From assembly GCA_020444065.1 (NCBI GenBank), contig JAHLLQ010000004.1, positions 198,662 through 262,661 on the forward strand: a stretch of DNA of 64,000 nucleotides, read 5' to 3'. A program made the translations under genes and the position numbers. Position 1 is the stretch's first letter; each line of letters opens with the position of its first letter. Below are positions 1,224-34,200 of the stretch, in pieces. The notes under the pieces were generated by a model that searched no databases, had not been told where the DNA came from, and saw only the letters and a list, made by a program, of their open reading frames with translations. The DNA is from a bacterium. GTDB lineage: Bacteria; Sumerlaeota; Sumerlaeia; SLMS01; JAHLLQ01.

Positions 1224-1907
1224 TCACGGCCGCGGGTGGATGATCACCAACTCGTTCGGAAGTTCATTCTTATCGTCCGGTTGGATGGGAAGCATTTCAG
1301 CCAGTTTGCCTTTTGCTTCGGCAATCGTTTGCGTGAAGGTCTCGGCGCGGCGGCCGGCGCGGAGTTGTTCGACGGCCAGATCGCGCAGGCTGTCCAGGAA
1401 GTCCTGTCCGACCTTTTCCGCCAAAGCATGGTCCGCGAGCACCACGACGCGGCGCTCGAAGAGCGAAAGGTACACGAGAATACCGCCGCGCAGTTCCGTG
1501 CAGGCCAATCGCCGCGATCCGAAGACATGCGACGCCGCCCGGGTAACCTCCGCGATCATTTCCTTCTCGCCAACGAAGAGCCGTCGCAGCAGGTGGACGT
1601 AGCTGGCAATGACGGAACCGGCGATGAATCCGAGCGTAACCGCCACGGCCTGCCAGCCGAACCCGATTCCGCTTGGCGAACCGAAGTTGCCGAGCGCGCC
1701 GCCTTCGCGCGAGAAGTCGATGAAGTTCACGCCGCCCAATACGACCAACGCCGCGATCAGGCCGCAGATCGACTCCGCGCGATCATAGCGGCCGGACTCG
1801 GTCGAGATCGCGCAAACGATCTCCGCGGCTGTGGCCTTCTCCGCCTCCGCGACGGCCTCTTCGACCTCGCGCTTCTGATTGCTGTTCAAGAAACTCTGAG
1901 CATTCAT
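1224..1907 (-). CDS. TPM-domain protein (putative), membrane-associated
   Basis: Track ORF 227 aa; N-terminal motif EVEEAVAEAEKATAAEIV resembles the TPM signature; hydrophobic segment; sits just downstream of a second TPM-like gene on the same strand. Confidence 0.5.
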   Translation of the reverse strand: MNAQSFLNSNQKREVEEAVAEAEKATAAEIVCAISTESGRYDRAESICGLIAALVVLGGVNFIDFSREGGALGNFGSPSGIGFGWQAVAVTLGFIAGSVIASYVHLLRRLFVGEKEMIAEVTRAASHVFGSRRLACTELRGGILVYLSLFERRVVVLADHALAEKVGQDFLDSLRDLAVEQLRAGRRAETFTQTIAEAKGKLAEMLPIQPDDKNELPNELVIIHPRP

Positions 1908-1941
1908 GCGTCCATGCCTTTGTCAGGTCGATGGGTTGTGA

Positions 1942-2790
1942 TTACCAGGAGCCGGTGGCTCCGCCGCCGCCGGAGAAGCCTCCGCCGAAACCGCCACTGC
2001 TGCCGAAGCCGCCGCCACCTCGGCTGCGCACGAAGACGGCCAGTATGCCGACGATGATCCAGGAACAGAACGCCATCGCCAGCAGCACTCCACCGGCGAT
2101 GAGCAGCTTCGAGCGGTACTCCGGGAAGAAGATCGCGAGGATCATCAGGAAAACCCCAAGTCCCGCCATCAGGAGAATGATGAAGAACGGGAAGAAGCTG
2201 AATGTCTGAACATCCTGGCCGAGTTGTGTGCTCTCAAGGCGATCGAAGAAATCCTGCTGCGGCAACGTCTCGGGATCCTGCGCGGCAAAGGCGCCCAGCT
2301 TGGCAACCCCCGCGACGATCCCGCCGGAGTAGTCGCCGGTCTTGAATCTCGGAATGATGTCGGTCTGCATGACCTGGTTCGCCGCATAGTCCCACCGCGA
2401 ACCCCAATCGGCCCCGAGTTCGATCCGCGCCTTTCGATCGCCCAGCGACACCAACAACAGGATTCCCTTGTTTCCCCCCGGCGCTTTCGAGCCGATTCCC
2501 CACGAATCGAACCAGTCGCGGGCGAAATCCTCGATGCTCTCACCGCTGCTGCCGTACTGGGCCATCGAGTTGATTGTCACGACAACAATCGGGACATCGT
2601 GCTCCTCGTAGGCCTGACGCTGGATGTTTCCGAGGACGCCGATGTCCTGACGTGTCAGGAGATTGGCGTAATCATTCACAAACGAGTCGTCGGTCGGGAC
2701 GGGCGGAATCTGCGCCGCGGCCAGGGCCATTGGGATCAGGAAAGCCAGGGCCAGCACCCAGAAGGCTTTCCTGCAAGAAAATCGTCGCAT
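1942..2790 (-). CDS. TPM-domain protein (YgcG-like), signal peptide, C-terminal TM helix and Gly-rich tail
   Basis: Track ORF 282 aa; signal peptide MRRFSCRKAFWVLALAFLIPMALAAAQ; TM segment FFPFFIILLMAGLGVFLMILAIFF; tail GGGGFGSSGGFGGGFSGGGG typical of YgcG-like TPM proteins. Confidence 0.6.
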   Translation of the reverse strand: MRRFSCRKAFWVLALAFLIPMALAAAQIPPVPTDDSFVNDYANLLTRQDIGVLGNIQRQAYEEHDVPIVVVTINSMAQYGSSGESIEDFARDWFDSWGIGSKAPGGNKGILLLVSLGDRKARIELGADWGSRWDYAANQVMQTDIIPRFKTGDYSGGIVAGVAKLGAFAAQDPETLPQQDFFDRLESTQLGQDVQTFSFFPFFIILLMAGLGVFLMILAIFFPEYRSKLLIAGGVLLAMAFCSWIIVGILAVFVRSRGGGGFGSSGGFGGGFSGGGGATGSW

Positions 2791-3009
2791 AGAGGGTCTC
2801 CAAGAAGGGGGTCAGGTGGCGTGTGTCCCACCTGCACGATCTATAAGAGGTCTCAGTGCCTTTATTCAGAGCGAAGCCCCGCAGAGGGGCAATGCTTTCC
2901 CTGGGCGAGCAGCCGCCATGACCCGAACGGCGCTTGACCGCCGGGCGGCTGGCGTGTTGGTTCGGGGCGCGCCCAAAGGGGCGGTTATTCTATCGAGGAT
3001 GGGCCCGAC

Positions 3010-4122
3010 ATGTCTTCTGTGCTTCCCAATGCAACGTCTCACCGCTGGCCGGGATTGATCGAACGTTACCGCGAGTACCTGCCGGTGACGGACAAGACAC
3101 CGGTCGTGACGCTGCACGAAGGCAACACGCCGTTGATTCACTGCCCCGCGGTCTCCGAACGCGTTGGCAAGGGTGTGAACGTCTTCGTGAAGTACGAAGG
3201 CCTGAACCCGACCGGATCGTTCAAGGACCGCGGCATGACCATGGCCGTGTCGAAGGCCAAGGAGGAAGGCTCGAAGGCAGTGGCTTGCGCATCGACCGGC
3301 AACACGTCTGCATCGGCGGCGGCCTACGCAGCTCGCGCCGGGATGACCTGCGCGGTTCTGATTCCGTCCGGCAAGAACGTTGCCCTCGGCAAACTCGCCC
3401 AGGCCATGATTGCCGGCGCCAAAGTGATCCGCATCGACGGCAACTTCGACGAGGCCCTCGAGTTCGTTCGCGAGGTTTGCGACAACCACCCCATTACGTT
3501 GGTGAATTCGCTGAACCCGTACCGAATCGAAGGGCAGAAGACCGGCTCGTTCGAGATCTGCGAACAGCTTGGCGGCAAGGCCCCGGAGCTCCACTGTATC
3601 CCCGTCGGCAACGCCGGAAACATCACCGCCTATTGGAAGGGCTACACCGAGTTTCACGCGGCCGGCAAGATCCCCGCGACCCCGACGATGTGGGGCTTCC
3701 AGGCAGAGGGCGCCGCACCCATCGTCCGCGGCCACAAGGTCGACAAGCCCGAGACCCTCGCGACCGCGATCCGGATTGGCAATCCCGCCTCCTGGAAACA
3801 GGCGGAAGCGGCACGCGATGAATCCGGCGGCCTGATCGACATGGTGACCGACGCAGAAATCACCGCCGCTTCGAAGTTCCTTGCGACGCGCGAAGGCGTC
3901 TTCTGCGAGCCGGCCTCGGCGGCTTCCGTCGCGGGGCTGATGAAGAAAGCCGAAGCGGGCCTCGTGGAACCGCTGGTGAAGGAATACGGCGAATTGAACG
4001 TCGTCTGTATCCTGACCGGGCACGGCCTGAAGGACCCCGACTTCGCGATCGGCAACACCGGGGGACTGATCGACATTCCGGCCAGCATGGATGCCGTGCT
4101 GGAGGTCCTTGGGCTGGACTGA
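3010..4122 (+). CDS. thrC: threonine synthase
   Basis: Track ORF 370 aa; PLP-lysine motif GSFKDRG; overall fold-type II PLP enzyme resemblance to ThrC. Confidence 0.92.
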
Positions 4123-4155
4123 TCGCCGGGCGAAACCTCACAAAAGTCTGTCGTA

Positions 4156-4197
4156 CCAGGGCCCGCGGGAAATGTTCCGCGGGCCCTGGTTTGTGTG
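4156..4197 (+). terminator. rho-independent terminator downstream of thrC
   Basis: 15-bp stem CCAGGGCCCGCGGGA / TTCCGCGGGCCCTGG (one G-U pair), 4-nt loop AATG, followed by TTTGTGTG; 34 nt after the thrC stop. Confidence 0.75.
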
Positions 4198-4374
4198 ATC
4201 GAAGCGGCGCAATCCATCCCGCGACTATGACTCTTCTCCAAAAATCGGTCCAAAAATGCTAAATCTCAATTTCCGAATTGTTGGAAATATCGGTCAAAAT
4301 ATGGCCAAAATGGGCATGTTTTGACCAAATAAAGCGCTCAAAGTAGGTTCACCAAATATTAACACAAAATATCG

Positions 4375-4403
4375 TTGACTACACCACGCGCGCTATGCAT
4401 ATT
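4375..4403 (+). promoter_or_regulatory. putative sigma70-like promoter of the nuclease gene (-35 TTGACT, 17-nt spacer, -10 CATATT)
   Basis: Hexamers read directly in the AT-rich island about 55 nt upstream of the GTG start at 4458; 5/6 and 4/6 match to consensus. Confidence 0.4.
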
Positions 4404-4457
4404 CCTCTGTTCTACTGAAGGCAGGCGAAAAATTTTCTCTCGGAAGGAGAAGGCGCC

Positions 4458-7079
4458 GTGACCCCCCATGAGTCATTAGCTTCTCGCGCACATTCGATGC
4501 GCACCCTCTGCAGTACTCTTCTGGTTCTTTCCCTCACATTCCTCATGTCGAGTCTGGCCCTGGCGGATGAATACGATCCCCCTTCCGGCTACTATGATTC
4601 GGCATCCGGACTCACCGGAAGCGCTCTCAAGAACGCTCTCCACAACATCATCGACGATCACACGAAGCTCTCCTACACGCCCGGCGTGTGGACGGCTCTG
4701 CGTGAAATCGATCAGGACCCCAGCAATTCCAACAACATCCTCGACCTGTACTCGAACCGCTCGATCCCCAAGACCGATCAGGATGGCTCGAGCAGCGCGA
4801 CCTACGTTTGGAACCGCGAGCACTCGTTCCCGAAGTCGTTCGGCTTCAACTACGAGAGCTGGCCCCCCTACACCGACGTTCATCACCTGTTTGCGTGCGA
4901 GAAGAACATCAACTCGACCCGCAACAACCACTATTTCGACTGGGCAACCGGTGGCACCGAGTACGCGGTCGTAGGCACGACCGACGTCAACAAACTGCTC
5001 GGCGACGCTTTCGAGCCCTGGGATGGACGCAAGGGCGACGTGGCCCGCGCGCTCTTCTATATGGACACCCGCTACAATGGCGACCAGTCCAACGAGCCGG
5101 ATCTGTCCCTGGATGATGGCCAGCCCGTAACCGGCGAACCCCACATGGCGAAGATCAGCACACTGCTCGAGTGGCACGCGCTTGACCCCGTCGTGCAGTG
5201 GGACCGCCGCCGCAATCACTTGGTCTACACGAACTACCAGCATAACCGTAATCCGTACGTCGACCATCCGGAATACGTTTGCTCCGTTTACGGCGGAGCA
5301 GCCTGCAGTGGCCCGACGCCGACTCCGACCGCTACGACAACGGCCAGCCCGACGCCGACCCCGACGCCGACCCCGACGTCGACCGGTGGCACGTTGACCA
5401 GCGGCGTGACGGTCAGCGATTCCGTCGCCCAGGGCGCCTGGGATCACTACTCGATTTACGTTCCGGCCGGTGCGACTCAGTTGCAGGTCGTCATGACCGG
5501 CACCAACGATGCCGACGTCTACGTCAAGCAAGGCAGCCAGCCGTCCTCGAGCAGTTGGGACTTCCGTCCGTACGTCAACGGCTCGAGCGAGACCGTGACG
5601 GTCAACAGCAGCTCCAACCCGACGCTTGTTGCCGGCAGCATGTACTACGTTTCGGTTTATGGCTACAGCTCGTCGACCTCGTCCTACTCGCTGACGGCGA
5701 CGGTCACCGGATCGTCCACCCCGACGCCGAGCCCGACGGCGACGGCCACGGCCACCGCGAGCCCGACGCCTTCGAGCGCCGCGAACCTGTTCTTCACCGA
5801 GTACGTTGAAGGCTCCAGCTACAACAAGGCCGTCGAGATCTACAACGGCAGCGGCTCCTCGGTCAGCCTCTCCGGCTGGTCCGTGCAAGTGTTCTTCAAC
5901 GGCGGCACCTCCGCCGGTTCGACGATCAACCTGTCCGGCACGCTGGCCGCGGGTGATGTCTACGTCATCGCCGACGATAGCTCCGTTTCCGCTCTGACGA
6001 GCGTTTCGGATATGCTGTTCTCCAACAGTTCCTGGAACGGCGACGATGCCGTGGCCCTGGTTTACAGCGGCACCACCGTCGACGTGATTGGCCGCATCGG
6101 CCAGGATCCGGGCAGCGCCTGGAGCGCCAACGGCGTCAGCACGCAGGACCAGACGCTGCGTCGCAAGTCCACGGTGACCTCCGGCGACTCCAACGGCACC
6201 GACACGTTTGATCCGAGTGTCCAGTGGATTGCCTACAGCATTGACGACTTCTCGAATCTGGGAACCGCCGGCAGCACGTCGCCGACCCCGTCTCCGACGC
6301 CTACGCCGACACCCAGCCCGAGCCCAAGCCCGACGGCTTCTCCGTCGCCCTCGCCGACGCCGAGCTCCGGCGGACTGACCAGTGGCGTGACGATCAGTGA
6401 CAGCGTCGCCAATGGCGCCTGGGATCACTACACGATCTACGTCCCGTCGAATGCGACCCAGTTGCAGATCGTCATGACGGGCAACAACGACGCCGATCTG
6501 TACGTCAAGAGCGGCAGCCAGCCGACCGCCAGTTCCTGGGACTTCCGTCCTTACGTTGGTGGCTCGAGCGAGACCGTGACGATCAACAGCAGTTCCAGCC
6601 CGGCGCTGAACACTGGCGTGACCTATTACATCTCCGTGTACGGCTACGCTTCGGCGACCTCGTCCTACACGCTGACCCCGACGATCACGACGAGTTCCGC
6701 CACGCCGAGCCCGACACCTTCTCCCACCCCGACGGCGACAGCGACATCCACTCCAACCGGTGGCGACATGACGAGCGGCGTGACGATCAGTGAGAGCGTT
6801 GCGTACCATTCCTGGACGCACCACTCGATCTACGTGCCCGCCGGCTCGAGCCAGTTGCAGGTTGTTATGACCGGCAGTGGCGATGGCGACGTCTACGTGA
6901 AGCAAGGCAGCCAGCCGACATCGAGCAGTTGGGACTTCCGGCCGTACGCCTGGGGTTCGAGCGAGACGGTGACGGTGAATGGCAGCTCCAGCCCATCGCT
7001 GGTGGCCGGCAGCATGTACTACATTTCGGTGTATGGATACGAGGCATCCAGCATCAACCTGACGGCGACAATCAACTAG
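4458..7079 (+). CDS. secreted multi-domain nuclease: signal peptide, endonuclease I-family domain, PPC module 1, lamin-tail domain (LTD), PPC modules 2 and 3, joined by Pro/Thr-rich linkers
   Basis: Track ORF 873 aa; RBS GGAGAAGG before GTG 4458 (alternative ATG at 4497 gives MRTLCSTLLVLSL... signal peptide); endonuclease-I-like region (VWNREHSFPKS, ARALFYMD); LTD-like region (ANLFFTEYVEGSSYNKAVEIYNGSG...GDVYVIADD); three about 105-aa modules of the type GVT(V/I)SDSVA...W(D/T)H(Y/H)(S/T)IYVP...DVYVK.GSQP...SWDFRPY resembling pre-peptidase C-terminal domains. Confidence 0.8.
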   Translation: MTPHESLASRAHSMRTLCSTLLVLSLTFLMSSLALADEYDPPSGYYDSASGLTGSALKNALHNIIDDHTKLSYTPGVWTALREIDQDPSNSNNILDLYSNRSIPKTDQDGSSSATYVWNREHSFPKSFGFNYESWPPYTDVHHLFACEKNINSTRNNHYFDWATGGTEYAVVGTTDVNKLLGDAFEPWDGRKGDVARALFYMDTRYNGDQSNEPDLSLDDGQPVTGEPHMAKISTLLEWHALDPVVQWDRRRNHLVYTNYQHNRNPYVDHPEYVCSVYGGAACSGPTPTPTATTTASPTPTPTPTPTSTGGTLTSGVTVSDSVAQGAWDHYSIYVPAGATQLQVVMTGTNDADVYVKQGSQPSSSSWDFRPYVNGSSETVTVNSSSNPTLVAGSMYYVSVYGYSSSTSSYSLTATVTGSSTPTPSPTATATATASPTPSSAANLFFTEYVEGSSYNKAVEIYNGSGSSVSLSGWSVQVFFNGGTSAGSTINLSGTLAAGDVYVIADDSSVSALTSVSDMLFSNSSWNGDDAVALVYSGTTVDVIGRIGQDPGSAWSANGVSTQDQTLRRKSTVTSGDSNGTDTFDPSVQWIAYSIDDFSNLGTAGSTSPTPSPTPTPTPSPSPSPTASPSPSPTPSSGGLTSGVTISDSVANGAWDHYTIYVPSNATQLQIVMTGNNDADLYVKSGSQPTASSWDFRPYVGGSSETVTINSSSSPALNTGVTYYISVYGYASATSSYTLTPTITTSSATPSPTPSPTPTATATSTPTGGDMTSGVTISESVAYHSWTHHSIYVPAGSSQLQVVMTGSGDGDVYVKQGSQPTSSSWDFRPYAWGSSETVTVNGSSSPSLVAGSMYYISVYGYEASSINLTATIN
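5390..7076 (+). repeat. three diverged tandem coding modules (about 5390-5700, 6360-6680, 6765-7076; roughly 80-85% nt identity by eye) plus CCGACGCCGAC-type Pro/Thr-linker microrepeats inside the nuclease gene
   Basis: Hand alignment of the DNA encoding the three PPC-like modules shows long shared stretches (e.g. ggcgtgacg.tcag.ga.agcgt.gcc...gggacttccg.cc.tacg...ggctcgagcgagac.gtgacg). Confidence 0.7.
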
Positions 7080-7128
7080 GCTTTCCCCCCGACTAGCCTT
7101 CGGTTGTCCTCCCTGAGGGACCCGACCG

Positions 7129-7172
7129 CCGCCCCGCCGAATTTCCCCCCTCGGCGGGGCGGGGTTCTTTTT
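7129..7172 (+). terminator. rho-independent terminator downstream of the nuclease gene
   Basis: 12-bp perfect stem CCGCCCCGCCGA / TCGGCGGGGCGG, loop ATTTCCCCCC, followed by GGTTCTTTTT. Confidence 0.75.
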
Positions 7173-7258
7173 AGAGGAAGCCGTATCGCGCCCCTGCGCT
7201 TGACTTCCGCTCAATCATTGGCCCCAGTAGTGTCATATGCTCCAGGGAGTTCGAGTCC

Positions 7259-7828
7259 ATGTCGAGTGAGTCCGTCCCGCGCCTTCAGCCCTCGTTGGAG
7301 ACCAGGCGCCTTATTCTCCGCCCGTTCGCGCTCACCGATGCGCCAGAGGTGCAGACGCTGGCGGGGGAGCGTGAGATCGCTGAGACAACTCTCAACATCC
7401 CCTTCCCGTACGAGGATGGCCTGGCCGACCAGTGGATTCGCACGCACCGTCGCGACTTCGAGCAGGGACGGGTTGCGATCTTCGCGATCGTGCGCCAGAG
7501 CGATGGTCTGCTGATCGGTGCGATCGGGTTTGTGCTAACGCTCAATCATGGTCACGGCGAACTCGGCTACTGGATCGGGCGTCCTTTCTGGAACAAAGGC
7601 TACTGCAGCGAAGCCGCTGAGGAGATGTTGCGTTACGGCTTCGAGGAATTGAATCTCCACCGCATCCATGCGCACCACTTCACACGCAACCCGGCTTCCG
7701 GGCGCGTGATGGAGAAGATCGGTATGCAGCACGAAGGGCGCATGCGCGAGCACGTCAAGAAGTGGGATCACTTCGAGGATATTGAGATTTACGGTATACT
7801 GCGGAGTGAATTCGAGCGTCGCGCCTAG
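7259..7828 (+). CDS. GNAT family N-acetyltransferase (RimJ/RimL-like)
   Basis: Track ORF 189 aa; typical RimL-like pattern (RLILRPFALTDAPEV...; acetyl-CoA-binding-like core GYWIGRPFWNKGYCSEAAEEMLRYGFEEL). Confidence 0.85.
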   Translation: MSSESVPRLQPSLETRRLILRPFALTDAPEVQTLAGEREIAETTLNIPFPYEDGLADQWIRTHRRDFEQGRVAIFAIVRQSDGLLIGAIGFVLTLNHGHGELGYWIGRPFWNKGYCSEAAEEMLRYGFEELNLHRIHAHHFTRNPASGRVMEKIGMQHEGRMREHVKKWDHFEDIEIYGILRSEFERRA

Positions 7829-8511
7829 TCGGCACTTGGGATCAGGATTCGGCCACCCAATCCCGCGGCGATTTCCATCAGAATCCAACTCGCATACGGC
7901 ACCGCATCAGGACGCACGCCAAACAGCGACACGATGAACGGGGTCTCCGTCCCTAGTTTCTCTGCGCCATATCGTTCGAGAAAGTGCGCGCGGAATCGGA
8001 CGTTACGCCAGTCGCTGAAGCGATAGGGAATTTCGGCCGTGAATCGATTCGGGTCGGGGGATTTCCAGTCCTTTACAAACTGCCACAGTGGGCCGAAACG
8101 TTCCGCGTGAAGTTCCTCGAACGCGGCGAGGTACTCCAACCAGCGGTGCGAGAGGTCCTTCGAGAGATCGTCTGGCAGCGTGAACTCCACGACAATTCCC
8201 ATGCCGTCATCATTGTCACCGCAGAATGGATTGGGCGTCTCGTTGGGGAATGCGCCATCCACATCCACCAGAGTTTTCGAGATTGTCTGGGAATCGAGAT
8301 CGGGATTCAGATCGAGATCGAGCCCCGCCAGTCGGTCGAGCGATGCGCTGCCGAGTTGCCAGGTAACGCTCGAATCCGACATCGCGCGATGGTGCAGCAA
8401 CCGCGCGGGGAAATCCATATACGCGCGCAGATCGCTCGCAACATAGCACAGTACTTCCGGGCTATCCTGGGGGGTCCAGCCTTCGTCGATGATCAGGCGA
8501 TCCATGTGCAC
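7825..8511 (-). CDS. hypothetical protein (acidic, cytoplasmic-looking)
   Basis: Track ORF 228 aa with protein-like composition; its stop overlaps the GNAT stop by 4 bp (convergent). No family recognised. Confidence 0.5.
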   Translation of the reverse strand: MHMDRLIIDEGWTPQDSPEVLCYVASDLRAYMDFPARLLHHRAMSDSSVTWQLGSASLDRLAGLDLDLNPDLDSQTISKTLVDVDGAFPNETPNPFCGDNDDGMGIVVEFTLPDDLSKDLSHRWLEYLAAFEELHAERFGPLWQFVKDWKSPDPNRFTAEIPYRFSDWRNVRFRAHFLERYGAEKLGTETPFIVSLFGVRPDAVPYASWILMEIAAGLGGRILIPSAD

Positions 8512-8549
8512 CGTCGGGCCACCTTCCCGCCCGGCGGTTCGTCCAGGCG

Positions 8550-9992
8550 TCAGGATTTCTTCCAGATCGTGCCGCCGGGACGGTCTTCCAGGGCAATACC
8601 CAGGTCGCCCAATCGATCCCGAACCATATCGGCGAGTGCGTACTGTTTATCCTGACGCGCGCGCGCGCGTATGTCGATCAGAAGTTGCAGCAGATCCTCC
8701 TCAAGACCGGCGATCTGCTCCTCCTCAGGCTCCAGTTCGCACGTCACGCCGAGGACTTCGCGAAAGACGCCCAGCAGGGCCGTTGCGCCGGCCAGGAACG
8801 CCTTTTCATCGGTCTCGCCGCGTTCCACTCGGGCGCGTTCGCTGTTCACAATCGTAACAAGATCGAACAGGACGGCCAGGGCCTGCGCCGTGTTGAAATC
8901 GTCGTCCATCGCGGCGGCGAAGCGCTTCTCGACCTCGACCAACTGCTCGTGGTTCTCCCACTCCTCGGGCTCTGGCAAATCGCCGAGCAAGTGTAGCGCC
9001 TCGCGATACGCATCGCTGTATCGAGTCGAGGCCTTCTGGGCTGCTTCCAGGTTGTCCACCGTGAAGTCCAGCTCCGTCCCGTAGTGCGCCGAGATCAGGA
9101 AGTGGCGCAGCGTAATAGGATCGAACTTCTCAAGCAATGCATCGATCGTCTTGAAGTTTTTCAGCGACTTCGACATCTTCTCGCCATCGATGTTCAGGAA
9201 GCCGTTGTGAACCCAATAGCGCACGAACGGATGCCCCGTGTGGCATTCGCTCTGCGCGATTTCGTTTTCGTGGTGTGGGAAGCGCAGATCCGCGCCGCCG
9301 GCGTGGATGTCGATTGTATCCGAACCCAGACATGCCATCGACATGACGGAACACTCGATGTGCCACCCGGGGCGCCCCTTGCCCCAGGGCGAATCCCACG
9401 CGGGCTCGCCGGGTTTCGCGGCTTTCCAAAGGCAGAAATCAAGCGGGCTGCGCTTCAGTTTCTGCTGACTTTCCAATACGCGTTCGCCCTGCCTCATGTC
9501 GTCGAGTTTCTTCCGCGACAGGCGACCGTACTCCTTGAAGGATCGAACGTCGAACCAGACCGAGCCGTCCTCGCTCGCGTACGCGTGATCTTTGTCGACC
9601 AGACTCTTGATCAGGCCGATCATCTGGCCGATGAATTCTGTCGCCTTCGGATGCCGCGTCGCGCGGCGCACGCCGAGCGCCTCTGCGTGCTCGAAGAACA
9701 ACTTCGTGTACTTCTCCGCGACCTCCTCGGCGGGAATGCCTTCTTCAGTAGCCCTAGCGATGATCTTATCGTCCACGTCCGTCAGGTTCTGCACGAAGTT
9801 TACATCATAGCCGCTGTACTCCAGCCAGCGCCGCATCACGTCGACGACAACGAAGTTGCGCGCATTGCCAATGTGAAACGGCCCATAGACAGTCGGCCCG
9901 CAATTGTAGAAGAGGACCTTCTTCCCCTCGGGATCGAGAGGAACGAATTCTTCCTTCTGGCGCGTCATGGAGTTGGTGATGCGAAGGGACAT
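8550..9992 (-). CDS. cysS: cysteine--tRNA ligase
   Basis: Track ORF 480 aa; class I motifs HIGN (FHIGNARN) and KMSKS; Cys-binding-like region GWHIECS. Confidence 0.95.
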   Translation of the reverse strand: MSLRITNSMTRQKEEFVPLDPEGKKVLFYNCGPTVYGPFHIGNARNFVVVDVMRRWLEYSGYDVNFVQNLTDVDDKIIARATEEGIPAEEVAEKYTKLFFEHAEALGVRRATRHPKATEFIGQMIGLIKSLVDKDHAYASEDGSVWFDVRSFKEYGRLSRKKLDDMRQGERVLESQQKLKRSPLDFCLWKAAKPGEPAWDSPWGKGRPGWHIECSVMSMACLGSDTIDIHAGGADLRFPHHENEIAQSECHTGHPFVRYWVHNGFLNIDGEKMSKSLKNFKTIDALLEKFDPITLRHFLISAHYGTELDFTVDNLEAAQKASTRYSDAYREALHLLGDLPEPEEWENHEQLVEVEKRFAAAMDDDFNTAQALAVLFDLVTIVNSERARVERGETDEKAFLAGATALLGVFREVLGVTCELEPEEEQIAGLEEDLLQLLIDIRARARQDKQYALADMVRDRLGDLGIALEDRPGGTIWKKS

Positions 9993-10038
9993 GGACGTCT
10001 CCTGGCGAAATCGATGTTTGTTTAAGAGAGGTTCTGAA

Positions 10039-10719
10039 TCAGGTGGCCAACTGCTCGACGGGGCTTTCGCGCACGACTGAACAGATCAGGCTCACGACGG
10101 TGTCCTCATCCAGGTCCGTCGTGTCGACCAATGTGGCGTCGTCCGCGATTCGCAAGGCGCCCCACTCGCGGCGCCGATCGCGTTCGTCCCGATCGATCAG
10201 ATTACGATAAATCTCTTCGTGCGGAACGGGCTTGCCCATTGCTTTCAACTGAGCCGCGCGTCGCTGCACGCGCACTTCGGGCGAACCGTCGAGGTAGATC
10301 TTCCACGCGGCATCCGGGAAAACGACCGTGCCGATATCGCGACCTTCGAGAACGCTCGATCGTTGCAGTCCGATGCGGCGCTGCTGATCGACCAAGGCCT
10401 CGCGCACATCGATGTTATCGGCCGCGCGGTGCACATTGCGTCCGACCTCTTCGTCGCGGATGGCCTGTGTGATTTCCTTCCCGTCCAGCCACACCGTTCC
10501 GTCATCGCGCAGTTCCAACGACAAATTCCGCGCCAGCGCGACCAGTCGATCGGTCGTCGCTTGCTCATCGGTCAACTGGAGGAAACTCCAGGCGACGGCG
10601 CGGTACATGGCGCCGGTATCGATGTGTCTGAAGTGGAGTTGTTCGGCGACGCGGCGCGCGACGGTGGATTTCCCGACCCCAACGGGGCCGTCGATAGCAA
10701 CAACTGGAGCCTTCTGCAC
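10039..10719 (-). CDS. cmk: cytidylate kinase
   Basis: Track ORF 226 aa; P-loop AIDGPVGVGKST; Cmk-like overall pattern. Confidence 0.9.
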   Translation of the reverse strand: MQKAPVVAIDGPVGVGKSTVARRVAEQLHFRHIDTGAMYRAVAWSFLQLTDEQATTDRLVALARNLSLELRDDGTVWLDGKEITQAIRDEEVGRNVHRAADNIDVREALVDQQRRIGLQRSSVLEGRDIGTVVFPDAAWKIYLDGSPEVRVQRRAAQLKAMGKPVPHEEIYRNLIDRDERDRRREWGALRIADDATLVDTTDLDEDTVVSLICSVVRESPVEQLAT

Positions 10720-10849
10720 TGTGAGCTGTCTCCCGGAATTTGGCGCGCGGCCGCCCGCGCCCGGACAACGGATTGCCTAGGCCACCGCGGGCCCGTCGGG
10801 CAAGGGAAGATACAGGAAGCAATGGGTTGGATATGGCGTGATCGAGCTG

Positions 10850-12319
10850 TCACGTCTTGCGGAACTTCGTCCCCAGCCGCATCAGCAAATCGTAAGTCTC
10901 GCGATCCCAGAAGCGCAGCGCCGCGCCGTAGAGCAGCGTGGGCACCGCGGCCAGCAGGAACGACACGATCTGGTGATCCGGCAGCAGCGCGCACAGGCCC
11001 CACAGAGCCAGTCCGAAGAGTCCCCACAGCGGGATGAAGCGCATCCACGAAAGGAAGAACTTCGTGTAGCCTGCCCGCAGCAGCCAGGCCAGCAGCCCGC
11101 CGTAGACGAGCCACATTGCAGCGGAGCACACCGCCAGGGCTGCTATTGCGGTCTCCACCCCTCGCGATGCTCCCCAGATCAGAGCGCCGGCTCGCACGAT
11201 CAGGTTCGCGCCGTTCCAGAACAGGCCGACCTCTGGCCGATCGCGCAGGACGTCCAGGCTCGAAATGGGCGAGAAGAGGCCCTGGAAGACCAGGTAGAGC
11301 GCCAACCACTTGAACATCGGGGCGGCGCTGTCTACCCAGTCCGCACCGAGGATCAGGTGGACCAGGATCGGGGCATAGAACGCCAACCCGAGCAGAACGA
11401 TCGGAATCGTGGCAGACGCTCCGCGGAGAGTCAGGAGAACCCGGCGTTGGAGCTCGTTCTCTTCCAGTCCCGCCAGCGCCGGGAAGGCGACTCGCCCGAT
11501 CGCGTGCACGAGAAGGAACATCGGCATCGCAATCAGTGCGTTGGCCATCGCGAAGACGCCCGCTGCCGCCTCGCCCACCAGCGCGCCAAGAATCAGCACC
11601 GGCGCCTGGGCGCCGCTCGCATTCAGAAGTTGATCCGCCGTGAAAACCGAGCAGAACCGTCGATGCTTGCCAACCAGGGCTCGAAACTCGCGCCACGCGG
11701 CACCAACCTGGAAGATTGTACCGAAGGATCGCCCCCGCCATAGGATCGCCACCTCGACGACGGCAGCCACCGCATACGCCGTGTAAAGCGCCGCCACGGA
11801 ATGCCACAGCAGGACCAGGGCGGCTCCGCCAAGCAGCGTCACGGCCGTGTTGCTGAACTCCGCCACGCCGATCCGCGCGAAGTTCAACTCCGCCACGTGC
11901 AGCGGCTTCACGTTCAGCTTCAGTGTTTCCAGAAAGACGATCAGCGGGAAGAACCAGAGCAGGTAACTGCTGTCGCCGAGGCCCATCCAGCCGGCGATGA
12001 CGCCGTGCCCCGCCCAGGCAACGATTGCGAGGATCGCGGCCCCGAGCATCAGGGCGCCGCGCAAGGCCCGCCCGTAGCGTTCGCGCTGCTCGGCCTCGCG
12101 CACGACCAACTGATCGAACCCGAGTGAAAGCGCCGCCCAGACCATCAGGTGGAGCGAAATGACCTGCCGATAAACACCCCATTCCGCTTCGCTGACCAGG
12201 CGCGCGATGATGGCCAGGCCGGCAATGCCGATCAGGCGCTGAGCGAATGTGAACGCCAGCACCCATCGGACGGCGGTGACGGGGGATCGACTCTTCATGC
12301 AGTTAGCTGGATGCAACAC
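10850..12319 (-). CDS. polysaccharide biosynthesis / oligosaccharide flippase-like (MOP superfamily) membrane protein
   Basis: Track ORF 489 aa, highly hydrophobic with many predicted TM helices; start either GTG at 12319 or ATG at 12298 (MKSRSPV...). The overlapping 564-aa ORF in another frame (10572..12266) has Arg/Gly/Ala-rich composition and is rejected. Confidence 0.65.
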   Translation of the reverse strand: MLHPANCMKSRSPVTAVRWVLAFTFAQRLIGIAGLAIIARLVSEAEWGVYRQVISLHLMVWAALSLGFDQLVVREAEQRERYGRALRGALMLGAAILAIVAWAGHGVIAGWMGLGDSSYLLWFFPLIVFLETLKLNVKPLHVAELNFARIGVAEFSNTAVTLLGGAALVLLWHSVAALYTAYAVAAVVEVAILWRGRSFGTIFQVGAAWREFRALVGKHRRFCSVFTADQLLNASGAQAPVLILGALVGEAAAGVFAMANALIAMPMFLLVHAIGRVAFPALAGLEENELQRRVLLTLRGASATIPIVLLGLAFYAPILVHLILGADWVDSAAPMFKWLALYLVFQGLFSPISSLDVLRDRPEVGLFWNGANLIVRAGALIWGASRGVETAIAALAVCSAAMWLVYGGLLAWLLRAGYTKFFLSWMRFIPLWGLFGLALWGLCALLPDHQIVSFLLAAVPTLLYGAALRFWDRETYDLLMRLGTKFRKT

Positions 12320-23520: not shown

Positions 23521-24975
23521 TCAGTTCCCCTGCCCGCGCTGAATCTGCTTGGTCAGGTACCCCACGATGCTCGCCATGTTGGCGTCCGCATCCACGGCCT
23601 TCTTGATCTTGCGGAACGCATAGATCACTGACGTGTGGTCCTTGCCGCCGAATTTCGCCGCGATGTCGGGGAAGCTCAGGTCCGTCAACTCGCGGCACAA
23701 GTACAACGCCAAGTGACGTGGTTGACTGAATTTCTTGGACCTATTGCTGCCCAGCAGCTCTTGCGGCGTAATCTCGAAGTAATCGCACACGCAGCGCTGC
23801 ACGTCCTCGATACTGACCCGGCTCTGGGGCTGGCCGACCATCAGGTGTCCCAACACCTCGCGGGCGGATTCCAGGTTGATCGGACAGTCGTGCAGTCCCG
23901 CGTAGACCTTGATGCGTTTCAGGGTACCCTCCAGCTCACGAATGTTCGACTTCACGCGCTCGGCGATGAACTGCAGCACGTCGCTCGGGATCCGCAGGCC
24001 TTCCTGGCGCGCTTTCTGCCGCAGAATTGCGATTCGGGTTTCGAGGTCCGGCGGCTGGATATCCGCAATCACGCCCCACTCGAAGCGCGACCGCAGCCGC
24101 TCCTCGAGCGTCGCCAGGTCACGCGGGGGGCGATCGCTGGAAAGCACGATCTTCTTCCCGTCGTCGAACAGCGTGTTGAACGTGTGGAACATCTCGTCCT
24201 GCGTGCGTTCCTTTCCCATCAGAAACTGCACGTCATCCAGCAGCAGAACGTCCACATTCCGGTATTGATTACGGAACTCCACCTTGCGGTTCATCTGGAT
24301 GCTCTCGATGAAGCTATTGATGAACTGCTCGGAGCTCGCATACATCACGCGCACCGTGCGGTCGGCCTCGTACAACGCGTGACCGATGGCCTGCATCAGG
24401 TGCGTCTTGCCCAGACCCGACTGTCCGTAGATGAACAGAGGGTTGAAGGCCTGGGAGTTAGAGTCTGCCACGGATTGGGCCGCTGCGTGCGCGTAGCGAT
24501 TGCTTTCGCCCACGACGAAATCTTCAAACCGATACCGGGGATTGATCCGTGGCGGATCCACGACCCGCGGGCTGGGTGCCGAATGCTGGAAGCCTCGGCG
24601 GCCGCCCATCTGGCGGAAATCCACAACGCTGCGGCGGTGAGACATCCCACCGTCGAATGGCGTCTGCTCTTCCGTGGAAGAGGACTCTTCAGTGCTATCT
24701 GTTTTCTCGCGGACGATCAGATCGACGTCCACATTGCGGCCTGCAGCCTCGCTCATGACCGAGCGCAACTGCCGGCCGTATTTTCGTTCAATCCAGTTCT
24801 GGTAAAACTCGCTTGTGACGGACAAGGTCACCCGCTGTGACTCTTCGCAAATTCCATCAAAAGTTATGGGCAATAACCACGCATTATACTCAGCTTCTCC
24901 CACATTTTCGCGCAAGATATCACGAACCCTGTCCCATACATCGGGCGTGATGCGGGTCATGAAAGAGTGTTCCAT
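23521..24975 (-). CDS. dnaA: chromosomal replication initiator protein DnaA
   Basis: Track ORF 484 aa; AAA+ Walker A GQSGLGKTHL; Walker B LLLDDVQF; C-terminal DnaA signature ...KDHTSVIYAFRKI. Confidence 0.95.
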   Translation of the reverse strand: MEHSFMTRITPDVWDRVRDILRENVGEAEYNAWLLPITFDGICEESQRVTLSVTSEFYQNWIERKYGRQLRSVMSEAAGRNVDVDLIVREKTDSTEESSSTEEQTPFDGGMSHRRSVVDFRQMGGRRGFQHSAPSPRVVDPPRINPRYRFEDFVVGESNRYAHAAAQSVADSNSQAFNPLFIYGQSGLGKTHLMQAIGHALYEADRTVRVMYASSEQFINSFIESIQMNRKVEFRNQYRNVDVLLLDDVQFLMGKERTQDEMFHTFNTLFDDGKKIVLSSDRPPRDLATLEERLRSRFEWGVIADIQPPDLETRIAILRQKARQEGLRIPSDVLQFIAERVKSNIRELEGTLKRIKVYAGLHDCPINLESAREVLGHLMVGQPQSRVSIEDVQRCVCDYFEITPQELLGSNRSKKFSQPRHLALYLCRELTDLSFPDIAAKFGGKDHTSVIYAFRKIKKAVDADANMASIVGYLTKQIQRGQGN

Positions 24976-27717: not shown

Positions 27718-27876
27718 CAATTCTTCGAGCTGGAATCCGCGACCGGCGGGGTGGACAACCGGACCGTTCGCGCACCCGGAACGGTAAACTTATGGCTGCT
27801 TCCTTCCGGACCTGACCAGGTTCGTTCCCGTCCGTCGCACGGGGCCCGGCTGTCCACTCCGCCGGCCCGCGGGGGA

Positions 27877-31211: not shown

Positions 31212-34200
31212 ATGGCAACCTTCGCGAATCACCGAAGTCTGGCGTTCAGTTCCCTCATCCTGCTGCTTACTCTCTGTGCCGGGACGGCTTTGGCCGCAAA
31301 GATCCCCGCCAAGGGCATCGAATCCCTGCCCCACGAATACCTGTTCGAGCAGGCCGATAGCCTTCGGTCATTTTCAGATCGGATTGAACTCCAGGGATCC
31401 ATCAACTCTGACGAGTTGCACCTGCTGCGCCGTGCATGGGTGGTTGCCGCTCCTCCGGGAGAGATCGAATACGAGATTCGCAGCCTTACCATCAAAGATC
31501 ACATCACGGGCGTTCCGGTGGAACTGACTTCCGCCGAGGGCATTGACGAGGTCCGGGAGAGCTACGGATTCAGAACTGGTTTCATCGTGGAAGAAATGGG
31601 CATCATGCGAAATGTCCGACTGCTCCGCGTGGTCGTGAACGGCGATGCCCAGATTCTCTACAACAAGCGCAGCTTCTCGCTTCGTCAGTTCGACATCGTC
31701 ATCAAGTTCCCAGAATGGAGCCCAGAGGATGTCTCCAACGGCTCCTTCTCAAGTGAACAAAGCAGCTTGCGCCAGATGCTCGAACAATCGGTCGCGAACC
31801 CCGAGATGCTGGACCTCTACGCGCAGGCAGACCCGCCTGAGACCGAGACAAGCCTGCACGCAAAGTCCGCTTGGCAGCCGCGTCCCGAACTGACAGCGGA
31901 GGACTTCCCTTGGCTGAAGATTCCGATCACCGAGGACGGCTTGTACGCGATCGACGGGCGCTGGCTGTCGGGTCAGGGGCTGGATCCCTCGACGATTGAT
32001 CCGGCATCGCTCTTCCTCGTGAACCGCGGCGAAGAAGTCGCCCTGGTGCAAGCCGGCCCTGAGGGGGCATCGTTCGCCACCGGCGCCCGTCTAATTTTCC
32101 TCGGGCTGAAGAATCACTCCAAAGAAACAAACGAGCGCATCTACTTTCTTGGTCGTCGAGAGACGCCCCAGGAACGTCCCGCTCTCGCCACTGCTGAAGA
32201 TCTCGATGAAGATGCAGAAGTCGAACGCACCTACCGCCGGAAGACGCGCATCGAGGAGGACGTGAACCTCGAAACGCGCGTTGGCAGCTTCCTGAGTATT
32301 CGCGAGATGACATGGGTATGGGATGAATTGCCGCGCGACACGCCGGAGAGTTTCACCTTCGATCTGCAGACCCTTCCATCGTCGGCACCCGCAGCCAAGG
32401 GATCGATCAAGGTCTACTACGCGGGCGTTGGCCTGACCGGCGTTGTGACCCTCGCGGTGAAACTCAATGGCAAGGAACTGGTGCCCGGTGCGACCCTAAC
32501 AAGTCGCCGCAACGTGGTGGATTTCGATATCCCCGAAGGCCTCCTGCAGGTGAACGACAACGTGTTCGAACTCACCATGAAGCAGCCTACGGGCTCGGGC
32601 AATCGCCAGATTCCGCCCATCTATCTCGATTACATCGAACTCGAGCATCAGAGTCTCTTCCGCGCGCACGATGGCCAGCACCTCGCGGACTTCGGCAGCG
32701 AGAAGAGTATCTCCGGCAACGTTCGGCTCGGCGCCGTTGGCTTCCGTCCCTATCGGATGCTGGCAGTGGACGTGACGAAGCCTGAGCAGCCGCTCCGACT
32801 TCCCGTCGTTGAAGGCGAAGGCATCATTTACGTCCTGGCCGATGTCACGCCCGAAACTCGGATTCTCATGATGGAAGACGACGTCGTTCCACGTGCCCCA
32901 GCCGGCGAGCCACTGCATTGGCAGGATTGGCGCGCGCAGGATTCAAGCGCTCAAGTCGTGGTCATCTATCATCCGGATTTCGAAGAGTCCGCACATCGGC
33001 TCGCCGCAGACATCGAGTCCTCCGGACGCGATGTCGTCCTCGCCGATGTAGAAAGCATCTATGAAGCCTACACGGACGGTGAACTGAGTGTCGATGCGAT
33101 CCAGATGTTCCTGCGCGATGCTATCTATCGTTGGGATGGTGAGCGTCCGACTCACGCAATCCTCGTTGGCGATTGCACGAGCGATGGGCAACGCGTTTCG
33201 CGCAACGACGTGATCAACTACGTGCCGACGCATGTGATCGAGGAAGCAGAGACGCATGCGATCGATGAGTACGCGACCGACCAGTACTACGCTTGGCTGG
33301 CCGGCGACGATGAAGTCGCCGATATCATCGTTGGTCGTATCTCCGTGAACAACATCACCGACGCCGACACCGTGGTGGATAAGTCCATCGAGTATCGCCG
33401 GCAAGACCCGTCAATTTGGGCCAGCCGCTTTGTTACGGTCTCCGACCCGGCCGAGTTCGAAAGCGTCTCCTCGATGCTGGTTCACACGTCTGTCGACCCG
33501 TGGTTTGACTACACGGCAATCAATACAGCGGATTATCCCTGGGAGGATAACTTCTACCTGCCGCGGAACTACATCCAGGGCGACGAGATCAAAGTCGCTC
33601 CGGTTGTGACGACGAAGTTGCAGGAAGAAATCGACAGCGGACTCGGCGTCATTTCCTTCTTCGGTCACGGTTCGCCGAATATTTGGTCGAATCAGCGCAT
33701 CTGGTTCGGCGGCGACAGCGAGAACAGCGATAACCTTCGCCTGCGCAACCGCGACCGGCTGGCGTTCATGACGTCGTTCACCTGCAATAATGGTGCGATC
33801 GACTATCCCGTACCGCGTTGGAATGTCTGCATCGCGGAAGACATGATGCGTGTTCCAAAGGGGGGAATGGTGGCGTGCTTCGTACCGTCCGGTCCTGGGT
33901 ACTCCGAGCGCCACTTGCGTCTGGCTGAAGGCTTCTTCCGCACCCTGACGCATTTGAAGGTTCGTGAGTTTGGCCAGGTCGCCGAGATGTCGCGACTCAC
34001 CTATCAGGCCATGCTTGGCTCCGATGATCACGCGCGCATGTTCATCTTCCTCGGCGATCCCACGCTGAAGTTCCCAGCGATCGAGCGCGATGCGGAACTT
34101 TCGATTCGCCCCGACGTCTTGTCGGCGGCCGTTGATCGTCAGCCTATTCGTGCGGCGATGACCACCGAGGAAGAAGAACTGACAACGGGGACGATGATCC

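Follow-up and report, generated by a model that had tools for sequence, protein, structure and literature searches.

What kind of enzyme is encoded at positions 4458-7079 of the 64,000-nucleotide stretch of DNA analysed here (the window), and how did three similar modules and a lamin-tail domain come together behind its catalytic domain? The DNA derives from an uncultured Sumerlaeota-like bacterium, related to Sumerlaeia. As an earlier note on this DNA had proposed, a single 873-aa open reading frame (ORF) in a program-made ORF list occupies exactly 4458..7079 on the (+) strand, stop codon included, and the same gene was found at 100% identity on Logan contigs L002 and L003. Its start codon is GTG, and a Shine-Dalgarno sequence, AAGGAG, can be read 8 nt upstream (4444..4449, +); the hexamer is identical in a contig from a sister genome (L001), where the start and the 5′-UTR are also kept. 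A consensus scan predicted a sigma-70-like promoter (TTGACT, a 17 nt spacer and CATATT) at 4375..4403 (+). Both boxes are conserved in L001 while the bases around them have diverged, and the site probably functions as a promoter. A terminator-like hairpin with a T-run was found by consensus scan 3′ of the stop codon (7149..7174, +), and we treat it as weak evidence because such sites are no more numerous here than in shuffled sequence. The nuclease gene is probably monocistronic, with a promoter of its own. On the opposite strand, a 912-aa ORF (4476-7214, −) is likely spurious, being rich in Arg and Gly and lying opposite a nuclease coding sequence with a GC3 of 0.82. The neighbouring genes thrC, GNAT and cysS gave no functional support for the nuclease reading.

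Pfam found all of the domains that the earlier note had named, namely an endonuclease-I-type domain, a lamin-tail domain (LTD) and three PPC-like modules, and it supports every one of them; for the nuclease and the LTD there are also confident structure models. The order is signal peptide, Endonuclease_1 (ENDO), PPC1, LTD, PPC2 and PPC3. The predicted Sec-type signal peptide, read from the translation, covers aa 1-36 (4458..4565, +) and has a basic n-region, a hydrophobic LLVLSLTFLMSSLALA and an A-L-A cleavage motif ahead of DEYDPP, without a lipobox Cys. The same layout is present in the closest relative, a protein from the sister genome that is 72% identical to the window protein (P0002), and cleavage presumably follows A-L-A. 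With a predicted signal peptide and a catalytic domain in one chain, the earlier suggestion of a secreted nuclease holds as a sequence-based prediction. The C-terminus is PPC3 (...LTATIN), and we found no sorting tag, hydrophobic segment or GlyGly-CTERM anchor there. Between the domains lie linkers whose coding DNA consists of CCGACG-type short repeats, all on the (+) strand: linker 1 (25 aa, Pro/Thr, 5310..5384), in which TRF and a repeat finder detected CCGACG and 12-nt short tandem repeats; linker 2 (25 aa, Pro/Thr, 5709..5783); linker 3 (30 aa, Pro/Thr/Ser, 6276..6365); and linker 4 (23 aa, Pro/Thr, 6690..6758), which was placed from the translation and coordinates. Every domain is acidic by computed composition, and all domains are under purifying selection when compared with the sister genome (dN/dS 0.09-0.25).

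The catalytic domain (aa 37-284; 4566..5309, +) matches PF04231 over residues 53-272 and over the entire profile (1-235 of 235), with 155.5 bits (cutoff 25) and an E-value of 2.5e-45. A profile of the domain matches Vvn and Vibrio endonuclease I (E 1e-16). Six residues, N119, E121, H122, D140, N152 and R155, are invariant across 15 homologues; three of them lie in the motif N119-R-E121-H122 (4812-4823, +), and N152 (4911-4913, +) is a predicted metal ligand that lines up in the profile alignment with the metal-ligand Asn of Vvn ‘EVNGDRSN’. The motif residues and N152 presumably correspond to Vvn E79, H80 and N127. The AF2 model of the domain (pLDDT 87.2) has strand-strand-helix topology at the motifs, formed by strands 118-122 and 144-148 and the helix 149-155. 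Its best six PDB fold matches are endonuclease I entries (2VND, 2G7E, 2G7F, 1OUO, 1OUP and 2PU3; probability 1.00, TM 0.5-0.6), and the next are Cas9 HNH domains. The nuclease fold that had been placed at residues ~40-280 is present by Pfam, by the AF2 model and by PDB fold matches, and within it is a beta-beta-alpha-metal core, in which the His general base ends strand 1 and the helix supplies the Asn metal ligand. In such a core, the predicted role of H122 is to activate the nucleophilic water and that of N152 is to bind the metal ion.

Identity between the catalytic domain and solved endonuclease I structures is just 16-18%, and the NCBIfam deoxyribonuclease I equivalog NF011716 gave 25.1 bits against a cutoff of 372, so the preference for DNA or RNA is not fixed by homology. 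Searched as single sequences, neither the nuclease domain nor the LTD had a match among PDB sequences; the relationships emerged only with a profile or a structure model. The catalytic domain has three Cys, of which close relatives share two, C275 and C283; a multi-disulfide pattern was not found, no Cys being invariant in the domain alignment. The enzyme might be chiefly a ribonuclease like Bsn, or a periplasmic barrier to foreign DNA like EndA or Vvn, rather than a secreted DNA scavenger. Bsn, an RNase activated by Mg2+, does belong to PF04231, as do periplasmic enzymes that reduce transformation (PMC5714182), and the domain is very distant from characterised DNases. However, the long Pro/Thr linkers and the four beta-sandwich modules of binding type are what one typically sees in extracellular enzymes acting on polymers, the LTD is of the type in the extracellular DNases ExeM and NucH, and three related proteins (P0013, P0014 and P0041) carry PF18962, that is, T9SS or other surface-sorting tails. 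We regard a chiefly ribonucleolytic or periplasmic role as unlikely. Since Vvn-type enzymes cut both DNA and RNA, the ribonuclease reading differs from ours in emphasis and is not an exclusive alternative.

The three PPC modules are located at aa 310-417 (PPC1; 5385..5708, +), aa 637-744 (PPC2; 6366..6689, +) and aa 768-873 (PPC3; 6759..7076, +), and all three have a D-x-D-x-Y motif, in the forms DADVY, DADLY and DGDVY, respectively. Pfam PPC matches three stretches of the protein (97.4 bits, cutoff 25.9; E 9e-28); PPC1 is assigned to Pfam PPC/DUF7590, the best stretch is 656-729 in PPC2, and PPC3 was delimited by self-alignment. PPC2 also matches PDB 2LUW, a metalloprotease PPC domain (E 7e-15). 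By self-alignment and blastn (E down to 1e-79) the modules are true repeats, or paralogues, which bears out what had been noticed of their repeat nature.

The earlier note went further, describing tandem segments with long stretches of nucleotide identity that arose by recent intragenic duplication and would be a substrate for recombination-driven length variation. These claims did not survive closer comparison. Only PPC2 and PPC3 are adjacent; PPC1 is 981 nt upstream of PPC2, and the LTD lies between them. Module pairs have 68-77% DNA identity, no exact repeat anywhere in the nuclease gene is longer than 21 nt, and the modules differ from one another by a dS of 0.57-1.30. Each module is nearer to its positional counterpart in P0002 (75.9%, 81.5% and 84% aa identity for modules 1, 2 and 3) than to its intragenic paralogues, and a module tree gives the pairs Q_m1/P0002_m1, Q_m2/P0002_m2 and Q_m3/P0002_m3, where Q is the window protein. 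Because each module is the positional orthologue of one in P0002, the triplication is older than the split from that 72%-identical relative. As judged by these sequence comparisons, the three PPC modules are old and not recent copies. A gene that is a hotspot for repeat-number change would also sit poorly with three assemblies (the window, L002 and L003) in which length and sequence are the same, and with an array broken by an LTD. The points in favour of recent duplication are the paralogy of the modules, the short tandem repeats that encode the linkers, PPC copy numbers of 1 to 3 among relatives, and the existence of relatives with younger PPC duplicates, such as P0008 (85% DNA identity, 60-nt exact run). 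For this gene the idea is largely refuted, and we consider it very improbable.

The LTD (aa 443-606; 5784..6275, +) is of the ExeM/NucH N-terminal type. Pfam LTD (PF00932) matches residues 438-546 (62 bits, cutoff 34.3; E 8e-17), and NF033680 matches locally (query 428-605 against model 11-175; E 2.1e-28). In the AF2 model (pLDDT 92.4) the top PDB matches are the Ig-fold domains of lamin B1, A/C and B2. The domain is acidic (pI 4.05, 17 acidic and 5 basic residues), which disfavours simple electrostatic DNA binding.

This segment is what sets the window gene apart from its sister. The alignment to P0002 spans query 1-442 and 608-873 and lacks 443-607; on contig L001, P0002 is an ENDO-PPC-PPC-PPC protein without LTD at the orthologous locus, and downstream of the nuclease the window and L001 share the gene order GNAT-hyp-cysS-cmk. 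An LTD is likewise missing from P0003-P0006 and from other ENDO-PPCn representatives. The gene directly upstream of P0002 on L001 ends PPC-linker-LTD-stop, and window positions 5590-6273 match it with 72.6% nt identity. Its C-terminal LTD is 69.7-70.1% identical in aa and 72% in nt to the window LTD, for which the next-best LTD reaches 52% aa identity, and the homology stops at ~6273-6276, which is the stop codon of that gene. Since the sister has no LTD, the neighbour's LTD matches at 70% and the homology ends at a stop codon, these comparisons suggest that the LTD was most likely transplanted into the linker from a gene like the sister's upstream neighbour, presumably in that direction. The right junction is at the start of linker 3. 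Informative sites in the C-terminal part of PPC1 are mixed in the three-way alignment with L001, so the left junction can be placed only in linker 2, at ~5745-5775; these mixed sites give no support to a chimeric PPC1. A foreign origin of the LTD was rejected, as its GC3 equals that of the flanking domains. The dS of the LTD pair is 1.06, inside the orthologous range of 0.66-1.41, and values this near saturation make the timing of the event rough. The donor-type gene is seen as a 225-aa C-terminal fragment on a 3.4-kb contig at 3.3x coverage, and a search of this fragment against a 5.8-billion protein set yielded short LTD fragments only and no full-length orthologue.

Could the internal LTD be an artefact of assembly, a chimeric join through low-complexity linker sequence? 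Repeats and such linkers can confuse assemblers, but Logan assemblies from SRR14069923 and SRR14069912 span all junctions in single contigs with 100% identity, the frame is intact, and the LTD has a dN/dS of 0.21, indicative of purifying selection; an artefact is extremely improbable. The Logan contigs break around the gene at points that differ between the two samples, and the breaks were rejected as a sign of structural variation. A second possibility is that the ancestral nuclease gene already had the LTD and the sister deleted it, the neighbouring LTD being an older paralogue and not a donor. The saturated dS leaves the timing unresolvable, there is one close sister sequence, on a low-coverage contig, and repeats encoding the linkers could mediate a clean deletion. 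Yet this history takes two events instead of one, the LTD is missing from all other members of the ENDO-PPCn clade, and the window LTD's homology runs exactly to the end of the neighbour-type protein, at its stop codon. P0009, 54% identical to the donor-type fragment, has the architecture EEP-PPC-LTD-stop, which is independent and older; this and the end of homology at the stop codon fit a terminal domain that was copied inward. We think deletion in the sister quite unlikely.

Our main reading, to which we give a probability of roughly 0.8, is that the gene encodes a Sec-exported Endonuclease_1 nuclease with tethering modules and an LTD inserted into an ancestral ENDO-PPC-PPC-PPC protein. From that ancestor, a piece of ~500 nt holding exactly one LTD would have entered the PPC1-PPC2 linker in the window lineage, the donor being a [catalytic domain]-PPC-LTD gene like the one directly upstream of the sister orthologue. 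More tentatively, and at somewhat less than even odds, the linkers and PPC modules of neighbouring nuclease genes may act as domain-shuffling junctions, through which an Endonuclease_1 linker received a whole LTD that had formed the C-terminus of a neighbouring nuclease, probably of EEP type; the window has no donor-type gene at this position. In that event two nucleases have been merged into one, and the locus is a natural domain-transplant experiment that may reveal what the LTD contributes to nucleases.

The domain order had been called unusual in the earlier note, and this was half right. The exact order ENDO-PPC-LTD-PPC-PPC was found nowhere else among the relatives searched, while the ENDO+LTD pairing itself is both abundant, occurring in 60 of the top 150 cluster representatives, and previously published (PMC5714182). 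Endonuclease_1, PPC and LTD also co-occur in other proteins in other orders. A metagenome scan returned >469 relatives, none closer than P0002; among species-representative genomes the scan turned up distant proteins with ENDO+LTD, LTD or PPC, but none from a close Sumerlaeota relative. Gene context is not conserved around the distant relatives P0003, P0004 and P0009, so the ancestral neighbourhood cannot be reconstructed past the sister genome. We are fairly confident that this is an ordinary secreted nuclease made from well-known modules, with the LTD in mid-protein as its sole unusual feature.

The protein is predicted to be a Sec-exported, sugar-non-specific, Mg2+-dependent His-Me finger (beta-beta-alpha-metal) nuclease. 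Once exported, its N-terminal catalytic domain would hydrolyse extracellular DNA and probably RNA too. The four beta-sandwich modules (three PPC and one lamin-tail Ig-like) on flexible Pro/Thr linkers may keep the enzyme on a polymeric substrate, matrix or cell surface, by analogy with PPC proteases and LTD nucleases, and may be trimmed stepwise following secretion. In published work, D-x-D-x-Y is the motif with which PPC domains bind macromolecular substrates, and the domains are lost step by step (PMC3327674); ExeM without its LTD retains most activity (PMC6085458). The most likely role would be to scavenge nucleic acids for their P, N and C, to turn over matrix DNA, or both. DNA in the environment is a large pool of P and N that extracellular nucleases recycle, and these enzymes also shape biofilms. 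This gene reveals no new kind of enzyme or mechanism, and a recombination hotspot is unsupported; it is a Sumerlaeota-lineage case of freely rearranged accessory modules in extracellular nucleases, and the orthologue pair differing only in one LTD would be a clean system for testing the role of that domain.

Among known systems, the window protein shares fold and motifs with the endonuclease I family (PF04231; E. coli EndA, Vibrio vulnificus Vvn, V. cholerae Dns/EndA and Shewanella EndA; His-Me finger group 9), including the NREH His ending beta-strand 1, the helix Asn metal ligand and a C-terminal helical sub-domain and, as homology would predict, export and non-specific metal-dependent nuclease activity. 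It differs from these enzymes in its low identity to solved members, in having no multiple-disulfide pattern, in its acidity, in a size ~4x larger owing to four accessory domains, and in falling far under the NF011716 cutoff that marks EndA/Vvn equivalogs. Endonuclease_1 is commonly found with LTD, fn3 and Big_2 domains (PMC5714182), and the fusions with LTD, seen in Alteromonas, Colwellia, Bacteroidales and many metagenomes, pair the same catalytic domain and lamin tail in a secreted protein. In those fusions the LTD stands directly before or after the nuclease, often in several copies, whereas the window protein has a single LTD between PPC modules. The comparison with ExeM/NucH-type nucleases that the earlier note had recommended holds for one module. 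The 170-aa LTD matches the N-terminal module of ExeM/NucH/Xds (LTD + OB-fold + EEP; NF033680/NF033681), the gene of LTD donor type is similar to proteins with EEP-PPC-LTD order, P0009 among them, and extracellular nucleic-acid degradation would be the expected role in both cases. Unlike ExeM/NucH/Xds, the window protein has a His-Me finger and not an EEP catalytic domain, its LTD is internal and not N-terminal, it has no GlyGly-CTERM anchor, and Pfam found neither PF03372 nor an OB-fold in it; over the whole protein NF033680 reaches 98.9 bits where 1300 are required, and the match is confined to the LTD module. The PPC-bearing secreted proteases (Pseudoalteromonas E495, vibriolysin MCP-02 with 2LUW, and Vibrio and Grimontia collagenases) have a peptidase where the window protein has a nuclease, but they carry the same D-x-D-x-Y PPC modules toward the C-terminus, with one to several copies behind the catalytic domain of a secreted hydrolase, as in the window protein.

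The nuclease gene is a single open reading frame of 873 codons on the (+) strand (4458-7079). The order of its parts is a signal peptide (residues 1-36), an Endonuclease_1 domain (ENDO, 37-284), a first PPC module (PPC1, 310-417), a lamin-tail domain (LTD, 443-606) and two further PPC modules (PPC2, 637-744; PPC3, 768-873), with four Pro/Thr/Ser linkers of 23-30 residues, encoded by short CCGACG-type repeats, between the domains. Pfam matched Endonuclease_1 at residues 53-272 over the entire model (E 2.5e-45), PPC in three stretches (E 9e-28) and LTD once (residues 438-546, E 8e-17), with a weak DUF7590 match overlapping PPC1. Residues 428-605 also locally matched the N-terminal LTD module of the extracellular nuclease ExeM (NCBIfam, E 2e-28), the protein lying far below the whole-protein cutoff for ExeM. 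The domain composition described in the earlier note is therefore correct. The same note had called the PPC segments tandem, but PPC1 starts 981 nt ahead of PPC2 and the LTD intervenes; PPC2 and PPC3 are the sole neighbouring pair, so the modules do not form a single tandem array.

The gene starts with GTG, preceded at 8 nt by AAGGAG, and a consensus scan found a promoter-like pair upstream (TTGACT/17 nt/CATATT); it appears to be monocistronic. L001, the contig carrying the closest homologue, P0002, keeps the start codon, Shine-Dalgarno sequence, 5'-UTR and promoter-like pair, while the flanking bases have diverged. On inspection, the translated N-terminus has a basic n-region followed by a hydrophobic core of 16 residues and then A-L-A ahead of DEYDPP, with no lipobox cysteine, making it a predicted Sec/SPase I signal peptide; P0002 has the same layout. 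The intergenic region before the promoter is 335 nt long, and its AT-rich part (4225-4345) has recurring CAAAAT-like motifs and a box, CCAAATAAAGCGCTCA, kept in L001, which could be a regulator-binding site. An Arg/Gly-rich antisense ORF of 912 aa (4476-7214, (-) strand) spans the entire gene; it is likely a by-product of the very high GC3 of the sense strand (0.82) and not a gene.

It had been proposed that the PPC modules share long stretches of nucleotide identity, reflecting recent intragenic duplication and allowing recombination-driven length variation. After codon alignment, pairs of modules share 66-75% of their residues and 68-77% of their nucleotides, with dS of 0.57-1.30 and dN/dS of 0.21-0.36. 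No exact repeat in the gene, whatever the register, is longer than 21 nt, a length that does not exceed the minimum commonly cited for efficient RecA-dependent recombination. The proposal of long identical stretches is therefore unsupported. P0002 (687 aa, 72% identical to the nuclease) has the architecture ENDO-PPC-PPC-PPC, and PPC1, PPC2 and PPC3 are 75.9%, 81.5% and 84.0% identical to their positional counterparts there and less alike to their own paralogues. As the modules of the two proteins pair one to one in a module tree, the triplication predates the split of the two organisms. Length variation found no support either: L002 and L003, two additional assemblies built from separate sequencing runs, have the gene at the same length and with 100% identity. 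Younger PPC duplicates were recognizable in a positive control, P0008, whose modules agree at 85% of DNA positions and share an exact run of 60 nt. PPC number varies from 1 to 3 across the clade; module duplication thus recurs in the family, but the present gene is no recent instance. P0008 (L133 2080-4449) and P0007 (L134 306-2906) combine Endonuclease_1 with MAM domains and PPC, P0008 also with an LTD; within each, the paired PPC modules share 90-92% of their residues, suggesting that duplication there is more recent or that the copies are being homogenised.

The history of the LTD is a separate matter. P0002 aligns to nuclease residues 1-442 and 608-873, and 443-607 are missing from it; the LTD is likewise absent from P0003-P0006 and from a number of other representatives of ENDO-PPCn clusters. 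L001 is binned as Sumerlaeia_SLMS01, and a second contig of that bin, L132, carries cmk, cysS (83% identical), a hypothetical gene and a GNAT acetyltransferase gene in the order seen at 7349-11456, which makes the two nuclease genes positional orthologues. Upstream of the nuclease the window has thrC; at the same place in the sister, directly upstream of P0002, is the 3' end of another gene, truncated by the contig end and reading PPC-linker-LTD-stop. Window 5590-6273 is 72.6% identical in DNA to this fragment, and protein identity between the two LTDs is 69.7-70.1%, against 52% for the second-closest LTD found by any search. The left boundary of the proposed insertion lies within the second linker (~5745-5775), and the homology ends at ~6273-6276, the exact position of the upstream gene's stop codon. 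The dS of the LTD pair, 1.06, falls within the 0.66-1.41 measured for orthologous domains of the same two genomes, and the nuclease LTD does not differ in GC3 from its neighbours. The simplest reading is that one complete LTD from such a gene was inserted once into a Pro/Thr linker; gain of the LTD in the common ancestor with later loss in the sister is a less likely alternative. The window itself is not an assembly artefact, as L002 and L003 span all junctions, and misassembly of L001 is unlikely, because its LTD is followed by a stop codon and then by intergenic sequence that is unique. P0009, an Exo_endo_phos-PPC-LTD-stop protein 54% identical to the upstream-gene fragment, shows that nucleases of another type can also end in PPC-LTD, an arrangement that is already established. 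If an LTD was captured in this way, with domain precision, from a gene like the sister's upstream one, it would be a tidy case of domains being shuffled by way of low-complexity linkers and might offer a way into LTD function.

Such an insertion would explain the domain order, which the earlier note had thought unusual. Among the loci retrieved, ENDO-LTD occurred 20 times, LTD-ENDO 11 times, LTD-PPC-ENDO three times and LTD-PPC-PPC-ENDO once; the two cases of ENDO-PPC-LTD-PPC-PPC were L002 and L003, the window's own sequence. When 1.84 billion cluster representatives were searched exhaustively with HMMER, 17,417 matched at E <= 1e-3, and the best 150 of these included 60 with ENDO and LTD, 10 with ENDO and PPC, one ENDO-PPC-LTD (P0010) and none with an LTD flanked by PPC modules. 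The exact order is so far unique, and to that extent the suggestion stands; the ENDO and LTD fusion itself is common and already known. It also occurs in cultured Alteromonas and Colwellia, and according to the published His-Me finger classification the commonest partners of Endonuclease_1 are fn3, LTD and Big_2 domains (PMC5714182).

The window's CysS is 100% identical to an NCBI protein encoded on a 432-kb contig. Named relatives of this CysS at 54-66% identity are Sumerlaeia or Sumerlaeota, as are the nearest named nuclease homologues, and the 83% CysS relative sits in the Sumerlaeia_SLMS01 bin. The flanking genes examined (two encoding TPM-domain proteins, thrC, GNAT acetyltransferase, cysS and cmk) showed no functional link to the nuclease. 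The two TPM-domain (phosphatase-like) genes are adjacent to each other, directly upstream of thrC (1224-2790, (-) strand), and might conceivably be linked to phosphate metabolism and to the nuclease close by. Between cmk and cysS, L132 has an inserted block (1633-4703) missing from the window (~9992-10039), encoding an N6/N4 methyltransferase, a BglII-type endonuclease, an SMC/AAA_15-AAA_21 ATPase and DUF4276, perhaps a restriction-modification system and an OLD/Gabija-like pair. Elsewhere, dnaA (23521-24975, (-) strand; Bac_DnaA, DnaA_N and DnaA_C domains) suggests that the window is probably near the chromosomal replication origin. The window also holds an SRP RNA gene (27754-27851, (-) strand), a 1508-aa protein with Peptidase_C25 (gingipain-like) and CARDB domains (31212-35738, (+) strand), probably another large secreted or surface hydrolase, and a 1480-aa FG-GAP repeat protein (57041-61483, (-) strand).

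The accessory modules resemble characterized domains. PPC2 matches the solved PPC domain of a metalloprotease (2LUW, E 7e-15), and all three modules have D-x-D-x-Y, which together with an aromatic residue mediates macromolecule binding by the PPC domains of protease E495, domains that E495 sheds stepwise after secretion (PMC3327674). The LTD model is confident (pLDDT 92.4), with the Ig-like tails of lamins B1, A/C and B2 as best PDB matches; the domain is strongly acidic (pI 4.05), making simple charge-based DNA binding unlikely. ExeM without its LTD gives near-wild-type clearing on DNA agar and has reduced activity in vitro (PMC6085458).

A nuclease fold had been placed at residues 40-280, and one is present there. 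The AlphaFold model of residues 37-284 is confident (pLDDT 87.2, pTM 0.89); its first six PDB matches are without exception endonuclease I or Vvn (probability 1.0, TM 0.5-0.6), with Cas9 HNH domains next. In the model, the strands WNREH (118-122) and LFACE (144-148) and the helix KNINSTR (149-155) form a predicted beta-beta-alpha-metal finger. A profile of 15 homologous ENDO domains has invariant columns at N119, E121, H122, D140, N152, R155, G193, D194 and R197, and further at W239, D243, P244, R252, Q261, N263, N265 and P271. It matches Vvn (1OUO, 1OUP) and Vibrio endonuclease I (2PU3, 2G7E, 2VND) at E 1e-14 to 1e-16, and pairs N152 with the Asn in the 'EVNGDRSN' helix of Vvn. Comparison with the sister genome shows purifying selection on every domain (dN/dS 0.09-0.25), and the gene is a real, well-supported, predicted secreted multidomain nuclease of a known family. 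Its preference may be for DNA or RNA, because PF04231 also takes in RNase Bsn (PMC5714182). The ENDO domain is 16-18% identical to the classical periplasmic enzymes and, unlike them, falls far below the NCBIfam deoxyribonuclease I equivalog cutoff, has no conserved multi-disulfide pattern and is acidic (pI 4.9).
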